Positions 3,936-56,877 of a DNA stretch of 64,000 bases are shown piece by piece. This DNA comes from Eledone cirrhosa. Lineage: Eukaryota. Position 1 is the stretch's first letter; each line of letters starts with the position of its first letter. The notes below the pieces were generated by a model. The model worked only from the letters and a program-made list of their open reading frames with translations, had not been told where the DNA came from and searched no databases. A program made the position numbers and the translations under genes. The stretch lies in assembly GCA_964016885.1 (NCBI GenBank), contig OZ024746.1:34844001-34908000 (forward strand). The letters run 5' to 3'.

Positions 3936-4105
3936 ATAACGAAGAAGTTGTGGTAAGGAACCCTATGGATCATAACGCACCAGAGTACTCAATACTTAGG
4001 GTAGTAGAGTGGGTAATAGGAAAAAGTATGACCCCGACGACAGAGCTCAAGAAATAGCCGACGAAACGGCTTGAGCTCTGCCGTCGGGGTCATACTTTTT
4101 CCTAT
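3936..4105. mobile_element. Short foldback element family, copy A
   Basis: Shared body (ccataacgcaccagagtactcaatacttagggtag) plus inverted arms ggaaaaagtatgaccccgac / gtcggggtcatactttttcc. Inserted in (TA)n. Confidence 0.85.
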
Positions 4106-4189
4106 ATATATATATATATATATATATATATATATATATACATATATATATCCGATAGGGTGTAGTAACTATATATATATGAATTTATA

Positions 4190-4361
4190 CACGATAGGGT
4201 GTGGTAAGAACCAGCTAGACCATAACCCATGAGAGTGCTCGATACTTGGGGCAGTAGAATGGGTAACATGAACATGTTCAGGACGCCAAAGCTGAACTCC
4301 GGCCGTTTCGACTGTTCGGATCTAGCTGTCGATACCACCGGACCTCAGTCGTCGAGATCCT
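4190..4361. mobile_element. Diverged relative of the foldback family
   Basis: tgtggtaagaaccagctagaccataac..tacttggggcagtagaatgggtaa..gccgtttcgac..ggatctagc..gtcga parallels copies A-E. Confidence 0.6.
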
Positions 4362-7300
4362 AAATCTTTTCATATATATATATATATAGAGAGAGAGAGA
4401 TATAGATATATATAAGTGTGCATCTTTCTTCTGCTGCAGGGTACAGTATGCATTGATATGTATTGATATTAAATTCTCTGTGAAAATGTATTTCCTTGTG
4501 TATTTCCCTGACTAGTTGGAATATCAAGTGAGATTCTCACAAGTTACGACAAATTATTCGACAGTGTATTAAGAAACTCACGAGGTAGCTGGATAATAAA
4601 TGCTCTTCTGTGAGGTAGAACACCCTACTTCGTCTCGCAAGGGTTCGGCTCTTAATGTCTTACATTCTATGTGAACCGGGCCGAATCCAGATTATAACTC
4701 CTGTGTGCCTTTCTGCTGACGCCCTTTAGCCACTTGGATATCGTATGATAATTCTGTTCCTCCTCGACGAGATTCAGCAGAAACTTCTCGCCGTTGACTC
4801 TGATTACAAACTTTTATTTAAAGGCTTCTTGAGTTGCATTTACATTCATAGAACATAACACTGGTAGACATGGTGGCGGTGAAACCACAACAGTGTCATC
4901 TCCACGACGACCGTTTAGCGTAAGCTAAACTTTTCAAACGTTGAGGCAATGTTGATCAGTCCGAAAGATGCCACTGGCTAGGACCTTTTACAGAGATGCC
5001 ATCGACCAAATATTTCTGGGGTTAAGCAACTACAGCAACGCAACGTGTCAATATATTTCTTCCTACTAACCAACAATTTCAGGACACATGATACAATATA
5101 CTCATATATACATTTGGTTAGCCAAAAACGATGGGGGGTTTGATATAAATAACTTCATTGAACAAAAGTATACTCGAGTAGACGTGACATGTTTCTATCC
5201 ACTACACCCACAAGAATAAAAGACTGGACGTGAGAGGTAGTTAGCATAGCTATTTTCTTAAAATCCTATCATACTGTCATGGATAAAGAATTTCAGTATC
5301 TCTATTTTCTTAGAAAATATGAATGGCCACAATTTACACGTCTTTGATCATAGATATGCTAAATGAGGTTCGAACGTGGTTCAATAACAACAAAAAACAA
5401 CTACGATAATAAAAAGAAAATAAGAAATGTTACTTAGAGTTGTTCAAGGATAGATCACTTGACCATATAATCTAAAGAACAGTGAACCGCCAAATACTTG
5501 AATATATCTTTTCTGTTTAACATCAGATCAGCTTTATCTCTTAAAGCATTCCAGCAAAGGCAATTTTGTTTTTCAGGTCCCGTATATTTGCTTCTGTATA
5601 ATTCTGAGGTCGATTTTGTATTTTATATTTCTGGATTTCATGAAAGAAGGAACAGTCTAATCACAACGGACTGTTAGATTTGATCGAACGTCTGACAGAG
5701 TGCTTTCCGGTATAAGTTCACGAGCTTTCTATCTTGGGTTATAACCTGCGGCGGCCCACTCGAGTGGTTGGCTTAATACATTATCCCATTTAAAATCGCC
5801 CTCTATCCCTTAGATGCCCCGATTTTAGTTTAAACATTTTCGCCTTGTTTTCTGTTTGAGAAAGTATTATGAACGCCGGCCTTGTGACAAATAGTTTAAG
5901 ATATTGAGGGTTGTGGATTGAACGATTCGTAAGAAGTTCGTTGATAATTCCTTATGATCAGAGTAACCACCACCGTAAATTTCAAATCTCACTGAGGCCT
6001 TCATCATTCCGAGTTCGATGAAATAAAGTGCTGCCATCAATATAATCAAGTGTTCTCTATTATAACATGTCTCATATTATGCCTATATAATAAATCAGTT
6101 TGTTATTCAAGATAGTTTTGACTTCTATTTCTAGTTTATCAACGAACATACAATAGCACCCTTTCTGGCTTTCTTTGCTTGGTTGTTGTTGTTGTTATTA
6201 TTTTGATTATTGCTGTTTTAGTGATTGTAATGGTTGATGAATGTGGTCGGGGGATTTATTGTTTCTTTTACAGCGTCATGATAAAGTCCTCCTCTGAGGC
6301 AAATATGTATGAGTCTACAGTTATACGGTTGAGTTAATTTCTGAATACTCGATGAAAAATCGTAAATGTTTGCTTAATGTTGCAATTTATATAGATGGAA
6401 ATTTACGTACTGTTTTGCATTACAAAGCAATTCTCTTGATCATCGATAAGTAACGATTAAACGATGTTTCTTTTTTCTCCTTTTTCTGACTACTTCTCTT
6501 TCTCGTTTTTGTAGTTCTATTATCGGTTTTCTTTTTTTCTTTCTTGTTCATTTCATTTCACAGGGGATCATTGCCTCGTTTTAGTAAAGAGTTGATATGG
6601 TCGAACGAACTTAACCAATAATCTCATGCTTATTAACCACTTTATCGAGTAACGATTGATAAAATCGTTCTTTTCGAGTTCTGTTGTCTGATACACACAC
6701 ATACATACGCACAAAACGACTCACATACTCATAAACAAATTCAGACACACATACACCTATGCACACATATGCACGGGTACAAGTGCATACATATGTTTAC
6801 GTATATTTTCTTATTTTACTGGTTTCAGTCATGAAACTGCGACCATGCTGGGACACAACCTCAAAGAATAAAATATACGCACATCTCTCTATAAGTGGCT
6901 GTATACCTGTGAGTGTTTATGCAATCGTATAGTTGGTTTATTGTTTTCATTTGAGGTACTCCTGTGATCGCTCTCTCTTGATGAGCGCTAGGCTAGGGTA
7001 CAACAATGAACAGTCATGGATACACACAAACACACATACACACACACACACACACGCTCATATTTATATATATATATATATATATATATATATATATATA
7101 TATATGTATGTATGAATCCATAAGTTATTAACAGAGGAAATAAAGAGTACTCAACACAAAAGTAGAGTCACCTGCACAATTACAGGACCACCAAACAAGT
7201 CTAAATTTTCGATAATAGATACAATATAAAGTGGGGAAGAAATGTGAGGAAATGTGGGGCTAGGTGTTTTTGAATGGTTTTGTTGCGAGGAAAATAATGG

Positions 7301-54678: not shown

Positions 54679-54867
54679 ACTATATATATATATATATATA
54701 TATATATATATATATATATAATTATGTGTGAGTGTGTGTAGATTATATACGCCTTATACATATATTACACAGAAATAATGTATATGCCGAGAGAAAAAAT
54801 TGTGGAACAAGAATTTAAGGAAGGAACGAAGAAATTAGGAGAAACCTGACAAAACTATGCAACAGAT

Positions 54868-56032
54868 TTTTTTCTCGTTCTCTCTCTCTCTCTCTCTCTC
54901 TCTCTCTCTCTCTCTCTCTCTCTCTCTCTCTCTCTCTCTCTTTCTCTCCCTCTCTCTATCTCTTTCTCTTTCTTTCTCACTCTCTCTCTCTCTCTCTCTC
55001 TCTCTCTCTATATATATATATATATATATATATATATATATATGTATATATATATATATATATATATATATATATATATATATATATATATATATATATA
55101 TATATATATATGTATATATATATATATATATATATATATATATGTATATATATATATATATATATATATGTATATATATATATATATATATATATATATA
55201 TATATATATATATATATATACATGTGGGTGTTTGTTTATGTGAAAGTATCACGCATATATGTGTAACTGTGCATGTTTATACGGAGGGAGTTTATGTGTG
55301 TGTGACACTGAATTGCACGAGCTTGCGTGTTTCTGTATATATGATATACCTGAGAGGAAAAAGCGATCAGATGAACAGTAGTAAATAAAAGCAGCACATT
55401 CATGACTGCCAAACATGAAATTTAAGCAAGAGCCGCAAGCAATAAGAAAATGTAACAGAAAGATAAACAGAGCAGCATTCCTATTATCATGTGTTACGTG
55501 TATATATATATATATATATATATATACATATATATATATATATACATACATACATACATACATACATAGATACATACATACATACATACATGCATACATA
55601 TATACATATATATATGTATATATATATGTATATATATATATATATATATATATATATATATATATATATATATATATATATATATATATCTGTGTGCGTG
55701 TATATATATATATATATATATATATATATATATATATATCTATATATATATCTATATACATATATATATATATGTATATATATATATACATATATGTATG
55801 TATATATATATATCTATATATATATATATGTATATATATGTATATATATATATATATATATATATATATTTATGTATATATATATATGTATATATGCATA
55901 TATATATGTATATGTGTGTGTGTGTGTGTGTATGCATTGACTAGATGTGTGCATGTATATATGTATATATATATATATATATATATATATATATATATAT
56001 ATATATATATATATATATATATATATATATAC
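54868..56032. repeat. Compound (CT)n/(TA)n/(TACA)n microsatellite field, representative of more than 40 SSR tracts in the window
   Basis: Direct reading of the sequence. Confidence 0.97.
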
Positions 56033-56670
56033 TCTTATACAGATAGCATATACCTGCACAGAAACACTCGTTTTCAAGAAATAGAAGGTTAAGTTTCAGC
56101 GAGGTAACTGTTACGAAAGAGATGTATGATTAGAGATACAATTATCGTAAGGATTGTGTTAGAGACTAAATACTCGGAGAGAACCAGACTGAAAAGTGTG
56201 TGTTTTTTGAAGATTAACATATAGATAACTATAGGGATGTAGTCAGAGAAAATACAAGAGAGTTAAAAGTTAAAAAAGACATTAGCTGTGTGTGAAGATA
56301 GGAGATAAAAATTAGTGACATGGGAATTGTATAGCTTCGTAAATGTAGGTGTTCATGTATGCATGTGTGCATTTGTGTACCTGCATTTATTTATGTAACT
56401 ATGCCCTTTCTTCAAAGAAAGTATCTGTGTACACATATATGCATATATAACAATACACACACACACACACACACACACATATATATATATATATATATAT
56501 ATATATATATATATATATATATATATATATATATATATATGTATATATATATATATAGATATATATATGTGAGTGTATACATATATATATATATATATAT
56601 ATATATATACACATACATACATATATATATATATATATATATATATATATATATATATATATATATATAT

Positions 56671-56877
56671 ATAGGAACCAGTAAGACCCCGACGGCTGAG
56701 CTCAAGCCGTTTCGAGAGGGCTAATTCTGTCGAATTAGTCCAGAATTAGCCGTCGAAACGGCTTGAGCTCAGCCGTTGGGGTCTTACTGGTTCCTATTAC
56801 CCACTCTACTAACCTAAGTATTGAGTACTTTGGTGCGTTATGGTCCACCTGATTCCTTACCACATTTCCTTCGTTAT
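56671..56877. mobile_element. Short foldback element family, copy E
   Basis: Arms ggaaccagtaagacccc / ggggtcttactggttcc, with (TA)n on both sides. Confidence 0.87.

Follow-up and report, generated by a model that had tools for sequence, protein, structure and literature searches.

How does a short repeat come to lie folded back upon itself, as a hairpin, within a (TA)n tract? The question is raised by a 64,000-nt stretch of the Eledone cirrhosa genome (assembly GCA_964016885.1, contig OZ024746.1, positions 34,844,001 to 34,908,000 of the forward strand; hereafter 'the window'), which holds six copies of one short repeat family: the folded copies A, C, D, E and R, the last of which is older, and the unfolded copy B. 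The hairpin repeats are genuine and very abundant, and are likely to be the usual head-to-head insertion scars of a Penelope-like element (PLE). They constitute a variant of a known insertion pattern, distinguished from the published PLE scar by a tail of twice the published length, the lack of a hammerhead ribozyme and a strong stop zone. The origin of PLE inverted ends is itself still open: self-priming was put forward in 2013 (Arkhipova et al. 2013, PMC3846280), and the biochemistry of 2024 revealed two start sites and priming from both target strands (Frangieh et al. 2024, PMC11167929).

The abundance of the family was gauged by mapping four read sets (X16, X17, X1 and X8) to copy D at 80% likeness, which retained 24,393 of 12.47 million X16 reads, 24,981 of 12.79 million X17 reads, 15,457 X1 contigs and 4 X8 contigs. 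The share of 0.2% in X16 and X17 comes from restriction site-associated DNA (RAD) reads, a non-random sample, and is not convertible to copy number; scaling from six copies per 64 kb would place the family at ~10^5 copies in a multi-gigabase genome. The sense strand is defined here from the inner end outward as the apex, an arm containing GTCGAAAC, CCTAT, a tail of 79-80 nt and (TA)n. The parts of the copies are as follows.

3936..4015, minus strand: copy A tail, 80 nt, the element 3' end, adjoining (TA)n
4016..4051, minus strand: copy A tailed arm, stopping early and sharing 2 nt (AG) with its partner arm at 4050-4051
4050..4105, plus strand: copy A tailless arm of 56 nt, in inverted orientation, with CCTAT as its end before (TA)n
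4151..4169, minus strand: short additional tail-end piece in tandem before copy R, identified by eye only
4190..4374: copy R, folded, older and from a second subfamily, with its tail at ~4190-4267, its tailed arm at 4268-4314 and its tailless arm at 4315-4374
12744..12805, minus strand: copy B tailless arm, unfolded, ending CCTAT and then (TA)n
12806..12835, minus strand: copy B source sequence upstream of the apex, the apex forming the 3' strand of a small stem-loop predicted here
12836..13310, minus strand: probable further extent of copy B, to a TA tract at ~13311-13325
31368..31447, minus strand: copy C tail, 80 nt
31448..31569: copy C arms, 62 nt each, with a TA overlap at 31508-31509
39321..39382, minus strand: copy D tailless arm of 62 nt, exceeding the tailed arm by 5 nt on the apex side, with a 1-nt overlap
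39382..39516, plus strand: copy D tailed arm (39382-39437) and 79-nt tail (39438-39516)
56671..56729, minus strand: copy E tailless arm, after which 3-5 nt are inserted at the join
56735..56877, plus strand: copy E tailed arm, beginning in source-type TTAGTCC, and 80-nt tail (56798-56877)

The folded copies share one plan, in which a tailed arm with its ~80-nt tail stands head to head with a tailless arm ending in CCTAT, the whole lying between (TA)n tracts. A preliminary description of the window, made from the sequence alone, had placed copies at 3936, 12744, 31368, 39321 and 56671 and a relative at 4190; all are present and mutually similar by BLAST (pairwise E-values among A, C, D and E of 2e-35 to 3e-72), and the relative, R, is indeed related but is itself a folded, older copy. 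The same description had all copies abutting (TA)n and the short arm always ending at CCTAT, and both points stand: TA tracts touch both ends of A, C, D and E, and CCTAT closes the tailless arm in A, B, C, D and E, with a CATAT variant in R. The arms, earlier thought to reach ~55 bp at most, were measured at 56-62 bp, and the DNA hairpin folding energy is -42 to -72 kcal/mol for A, C, D and E and -16 kcal/mol for R. The tail is found on one end only in A, C, D, E and R and is absent from B. Inverted and direct 5'-truncated copies lie side by side in 5/6 window copies, which is the layout that marks PLE insertions, and the flanking TA tracts preclude the reading of any target site duplication (TSD).

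At the inner ends the copies are far less uniform. All five junctions are different, with a 2-nt overlap in A and in C, a 1-nt overlap in D, one of ~1 nt in R and an insertion of 3-5 nt in E. The tailless arm outruns the tailed arm in three of the five folded copies (it comes ~20 nt nearer the apex in A, 5 nt in D and ~10 nt in R); the reach of the two arms is equal in C, and in E the tailed arm is the longer.

Copy B had been taken for a lone arm; it in fact runs on into further sequence, reading on the sense strand as source sequence, then TTTAGTCC, the arm, CCTAT and (TA)n. Its flank at 12806-12835 agrees by eye with the consensus of X1 loose ends at 26/30 letters, and with one X8 contig at 18/24 letters with a 2-nt gap; since the flank matches the loose ends of reads, copy B shows the family source sequence. 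The copy is young, as its arm differs from the A-type majority at 1/56 sites. It may be a 570-nt insertion ending at the TA tract near 13311-13325, and no open reading frame (ORF) was found within these 570 nt, nor any second copy of 12836-13310 within the window. Upstream, 500 nt show a strong excess of pyrimidines on the sense strand (4/254 windows of sequence are equally biased). For B, RNAfold predicts a stem-loop of 7 bp in which the apex letters form the 3' strand, and also a small hairpin that pairs CCGT with ACGG around CGAA. Taken as a whole, the fold is no better than that of shuffled sequence (z -0.69), and folding of a single sense arm with its tail was likewise not better than shuffles in 7/7 stretches (z -1.6 to +1.1).

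The unfolded copy also bears on where the hairpin turns. The turn had been assigned to a palindrome, yet the 10-mer GGACTAGTCC occurs at a single place in the window, in copy C, where it was created by the 2-nt TA overlap of the two arms, and it is absent from the source as seen in B. Of the other copies, D keeps GGACTAG, E carries its insertion, A has nothing of GGACTAGTCC and R has a different apex. The apex motif of R, TTCGGATC, is found again at the loose ends of 1,990 and 2,022 reads, and these reads define a second subfamily with its own upstream sequence. The end at CCTAT had been explained as microhomology capture after folding back; this is not supported, because B has the same end unfolded.

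It had further been proposed that the hinge is helix II of a hammerhead of which only the 3' half survives. The GAAAC of that half is present and the CUGANGA half is missing, as described, and it is missing from the unfolded copy B too. There was no exact CUGANGA in or near any copy, and allowing one mismatch yielded none in the 60 nt upstream of the B apex; AGTTC, able to pair with GAGCT, is present in B with no core after it, and the R-type copies lack a U before the cut site. A parent reading agctc-CTGANGA-gacggct upstream of the apex was expected, and B does not read so. Rfam scans of B and D returned no hammerhead and no ribozyme family, and the scan of the window returned no ribozyme family among the matches listed (150 of 223). 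With CUGANGA lacking from unfolded B, and the palindrome made by the join, the hammerhead hinge is not supported.

The comparison of the two arms of each copy used 56 aligned columns from A, C, D and E, R being left out because it is poorly alignable. Eighteen columns vary: at 6 sites the variant is common to the two arms of one copy, none is side-specific and 12 concern a single arm. The arms group by copy and not by side, as had been anticipated. Amongst the 24 possible matchings of long with short arms, the one that pairs arms of the same copy gives the smallest mean distance (0.056); a tree of nine arms resolves only A/B/C from D/E (100/96), with five other inner branches open. The claim that copy-specific variants appear in both arms survives in part: the variants are shared between arms, but they are not private to a copy, being common family alleles (those of A are also in B, and D position 39424 has three alleles at ~25/35/40% in X16 reads). 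At this site alone, independent allele draws would make both arms match in all four copies with p = 0.013-0.033, from which it follows that both arms of a copy probably derive from one template or RNA, or from one source locus; arm agreement does not choose between the routes by which this could occur. Among the single-arm changes, 6/6 are transversions in tailless arms against 1/6 in tailed arms (Fisher p = 0.015, post hoc, with one of the six alignment-dependent), an excess that could reflect error-prone synthesis of one arm, or chance.

The mapped reads extend these observations across the family. Reads leave copy D at 39437 into TA in 3,003/24,393 X16 and 2,541/24,981 X17 cases, variant arms leave at 39425 in 1,393 and 1,457 reads (consensus CCTAT-TA or CAT-TA), and the last base beyond the tail end is still covered by ~8,000 and 8,850 reads; recurrent breaks at CCTAT and at the tail end show that both outer ends recur family-wide. 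A preferred turning zone, as the preliminary description had it, is also supported. Of the skip joints listed, 8/10 start in the apex zone at 39375-39386 and 8/10 resume at 39430-39436, next to CCTAT; among all joints listed (15 of 41), 12 have one side at 39375-39387 and the other at 39430-39489. In one X1 contig, source-like letters continue beyond the apex before the join to the tail, and other apex loose ends run on into non-palindromic sequence. The X1 consensus behind 39382 comprises 51 contigs, with a median of 14 letters and an agreement of 0.52. Molecule ends at 39384 (7,190 and 7,276) were considered as a turn point and are read instead as the library restriction cut at AATT.

That the repeats display PLE-type inverted ends, as first suggested, agrees with the published arrangement (PMC8557442, PMC3846280). 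The PLE insertion unit has been described as an inverted 5'-truncated copy beside a 5'-truncated copy, with a one-sided tail of 30-40 bp (a typical value, not a limit) and a bias to (TA)n in Naiad and Hydra elements (Craig et al. 2021, PMC8557442). Set against this account of endonuclease-bearing (EN+) PLEs, the short repeats are alike in the inverted truncated arm, the one-ended tail and the (TA)n that hides the TSD, and differ in the tail of ~80 nt, the clustering of truncations in one zone and the lack of any ORF seen in them (PMC8557442). It is this likeness of layout, in place of a link to a coding ORF, that makes the short repeat family likely to belong to the PLEs and that points to a PLE protein as the probable agent of the scars.

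On balance we favour, at about an even chance of being right, a model in which each scar is an insertion of a PLE RNA 3' end with severe 5' truncation, two cDNAs having been joined head to head near the stop zone. The two cDNAs would be primed from the two cut strands of the (TA)n target and would start at two RNA sites 80 nt apart, the tail end and CCTAT; both would tend to stop near the predicted stem-loop, and host end-joining would then link them through overlaps of 1-2 nt or short insertions. The role of CCTAT as a second start site is suggested by analogy with an Anolis element in vitro. The stop may be caused by the stem-loop or by a fixed 5' end of the RNA, and the join is presumably the work of the host. 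The model needs no additional step for unequal arms, and PLE remnants are present in the window.

Several points weigh against the two-cDNA model. The PLE remnants of the window have no BLAST match to the short repeat family, the tail, at 79-80 nt, exceeds the published 30-40 nt, and there is no hammerhead core, nor any ribozyme among the Rfam matches listed, unlike canonical PLEs. R4/Dong and Rex6 LINEs (long interspersed nuclear elements) likewise target TA-rich repeats. Unequal arms can also be obtained by later deletion at the palindrome tip. As regards the reads, the use of D as reference favours breaks at 39382, 39387 and 39431, D lacks 5 apex letters and positions 39424-39430 are variable; most joints are supported by 1-5 read starts or 1-2 contigs; the AATT cut masks the apex in the same 7,190 and 7,276 RAD molecules; and the far half of the 30-letter X1 consensus may rest on few contigs, possibly on the locus of B itself.

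A more specific form of the two-cDNA model is offered tentatively, as something appreciably less probable than an even chance. Two reverse transcriptases (RTs) would work on one RNA, the one starting at CCTAT moving ahead to the fixed stem-loop whilst the one starting at the tail end frequently stalls in its wake, either on the second start site or past it, and the cDNAs would be end-joined. The family would then be a PLE-type family of very high copy number without a ribozyme, and its stop signal would be a conserved 3' RNA structure that is Naiad-like and not a hammerhead.

The strongest competing explanation, which we nonetheless consider unlikely, is a single-cDNA snap-back without a ribozyme, in which the tailed cDNA would bend over at the apex, serve as its own template as far back as CCTAT and then be joined to the target, with later deletions at the tip making the arms unequal. 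Loss of palindrome tips is common, which counts in its favour. It would explain the agreement of the arms directly and suits E, whose tailed arm is the longer; self-priming has, moreover, already been proposed for palindromic PLE junctions (PMC3846280). A snap-back copies only what the first cDNA holds, and hence the tailless arm should never outrun the tailed arm. It is accordingly strained by A, D and R, in which the tailless arm has sequence that the tailed arm never reaches and for which additional deletions would be required. The join in C has no spacer, which a priming hairpin does not readily give, the CCTAT end occurs unfolded in B, and read joints between a full tailless arm and the tail only would require one-sided deletions of 40-100 nt.

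It is improbable that a ready-made hairpin of ~200 nt is copied whole as a non-autonomous element, the arms of its source being kept alike by gene conversion. The near-constant length of C, D and E would suit such an element, as would shared variants that are subfamily alleles and not private. Its copies should not, however, differ at the junction in all five folded cases; an unfolded source form exists (B, and the loose ends in X1 and X8), and not one of the 18 variable columns is side-specific.

The possibility that a non-PLE retroelement, such as a TA-targeting LINE, made the same scars on the RNA of the short element is doubtful to much the same degree, its attraction lying in the missing link to a PLE ORF, the long tail and the absence of a hammerhead. 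The twin priming of L1 inverts upstream sequence without duplicating the 3' end, which tells against it. Dong-R4 LINEs have been listed as active in Octopus vulgaris (PMC13282606, Table 1), which would speak for it in an octopus host, but an inverted 3' duplicate with a one-sided tail is described as unseen in target-primed reverse transcription by non-long terminal repeat (LTR) elements (PMC8557442).

Still less probable is a DNA transposon, whether a miniature inverted-repeat transposable element (MITE) or a Helitron-like element with a small GC hairpin followed by CTAG/CTAA as its 3' end. The antisense strand does hold a 6-bp GC-rich hairpin ~10 nt before CTAG/CTAA, but the sequence past CTAA is conserved in B, X1 and X8 and is hence not a terminus, which largely refutes a DNA transposon. 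As for a MITE, there are no terminal inverted repeats, in line with the preliminary description: the two ends share only ATA/TAT and the inverted repeat is one-sided. Ragged inner ends combined with fixed outer ends are, besides, the pattern of a retroelement. A fold-back artefact of sequencing or assembly is the least credible of all, for near-perfect palindromes are a known type of chimera but the arms differ within copies (7/56 in C, 2/56 in D and 2/56 in E) and independent reads show the tailless end thousands of times. A tRNA-derived short interspersed nuclear element (SINE) was considered and rejected, as ARAGORN found 0 genes and the sole Rfam tRNA match among those listed lies at 26948-27020.

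Amongst the known systems, the Penelope elements of Adineta vaga (Pen2a_Av and others) have palindromes at their inverted junctions, which were interpreted as self-priming (Arkhipova et al. 2013, PMC3846280). They resemble the short repeats in having an inverted pseudo-LTR that is shorter by the tail and in the junction palindromes, and differ in being few, long and ORF-bearing, with TSDs, as there described; here, the palindrome is absent from the source. The purified protein of PAc, a Poseidon element from Anolis carolinensis, cuts and extends both strands of AT-rich targets; its synthesis begins at either of two internal RNA sites, between which the tail lies, and insertion in vitro did not require hammerhead cleavage (Frangieh et al. 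2024, PMC11167929). The two fixed 3' ends and the AT-rich targets are common to PAc and the short repeats; PAc, by contrast, has a hammerhead and a short tail, and the inverted join is not part of the model in the portions of that account used here (PMC11167929). The canonical hammerhead PLEs (Penelope/Poseidon, Neptune and Hydra) have a type I hammerhead near the 3' end, which this family lacks, and the hammerhead region listed for Hydra-1_Obim shows no resemblance to the short repeat.

The octopus elements Naiad_Ovul and Naiad_Obim, as given in the supplement of PMC8557442, share the (TA)n target and the lack of a canonical hammerhead with the short repeats, which is a weak criterion for Naiad. 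By eye, both have a stem, then GTCGAAAC, then CCGT(C)GGGG at ~110-120 nt from the 3' end, which is to be taken as a lead only; GTCGAAAC has three matches in the supplement, two of which are the ends of these elements. The remaining 3' end is unlike, and the young look of copy D contrasts with the description of cephalopod Naiads as long dead. An 18-nt Naiad motif gave 0 matches to the window at 3 mismatches. Non-LTR retrozymes (bioRxiv 2026.07.22.740005) are similarly short, non-coding derivatives of PLE ends in animals, but are described as head-to-tail tandems with intact type I hammerheads, in contrast to the head-to-head singles without any that are found here; close pairs of minimal hammerheads on opposite strands have also been noted (PMC4209133).

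O. vulgaris has been reported to hold 31 recently active PLE families, in a text that carries no sequences (PMC13282606), and PMC8967140 makes no mention of hairpin, palindrome or inverted. A search of the full-text literature found no paper with two element motifs or on this family; a library name in Repbase, Dfam or the Zenodo set of PMC13282606 is possible. The short-repeat patterns had 0 matches in viral contigs and prokaryotic genomes, and two metagenome matches were dismissed as chance 19-mer matches in unrelated DNA.

The layout being already known, the surprise is modest, and the value of the family is as a large natural data set for a mechanistic question. Both arms, both fixed ends and the junction fall within 200 bp at ~0.2% of reads, such that junction counts over thousands of copies could decide between snap-back and two-cDNA joining without experiment. 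If two reverse transcriptases do work on one RNA, the genome would hold ~10^5 natural snapshots of the formation of PLE inverted ends. Many 60-bp hairpins would enter transcripts, which could have a bearing on RNA editing.

PLE remnants and hammerhead-like motifs occur elsewhere in the window. A frameshifted PLE RT with a C-terminal endonuclease, of the ~700-aa type and with Hydra-like motifs by a published alignment, lies at 62495-64000 (minus strand), and a search with its protein gave 115 database relatives among 248 candidates. A decayed PLE RT lies at ~51040-52300, and behind its RT remnant, placed at ~51040-52000, a decayed hammerhead-like motif is found at 52218-52255 (plus strand). Minimal hammerhead-like motifs (CUGANGA ... 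GAAA ... UH) are present at 39021 (plus strand) and 36858 (minus strand). A 630-bp head-to-head fold-back of another family, with 89% identity, occupies 38141-38772; its left arm holds a full type I hammerhead motif at 38390 (minus strand) and its right arm a rearranged one at 38518 (plus strand). At 26245-26943, a partial tandem of ~340 nt with a 61-nt inverted piece has a PLE-like layout and is followed by a tRNA-like SINE head at 26948-27020.

The window also contains inverted and dispersed repeats of other kinds. Inverted repeats of 221 nt, 98.6% identical, surround 531 nt at 2228-3200 in a MITE-like arrangement, and an inverted pair (83%) at 57144-57743 faces a central TA-rich tract. Copies of one abundant SINE-like repeat of ~190 nt are found at 31125-31332, 33093-33280, 53386-53593, 29231-29382, 29478-29644, 1512-1679 and 47341-47504. 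A LINE-type RT fragment lies at 41301-41618 (plus strand; Pfam RVT_1, E 5.6e-05, below the curated cut-off), and two copies of a ~390-nt repeat, 89% identical, are located at 3193-3581 and 61410-61794.

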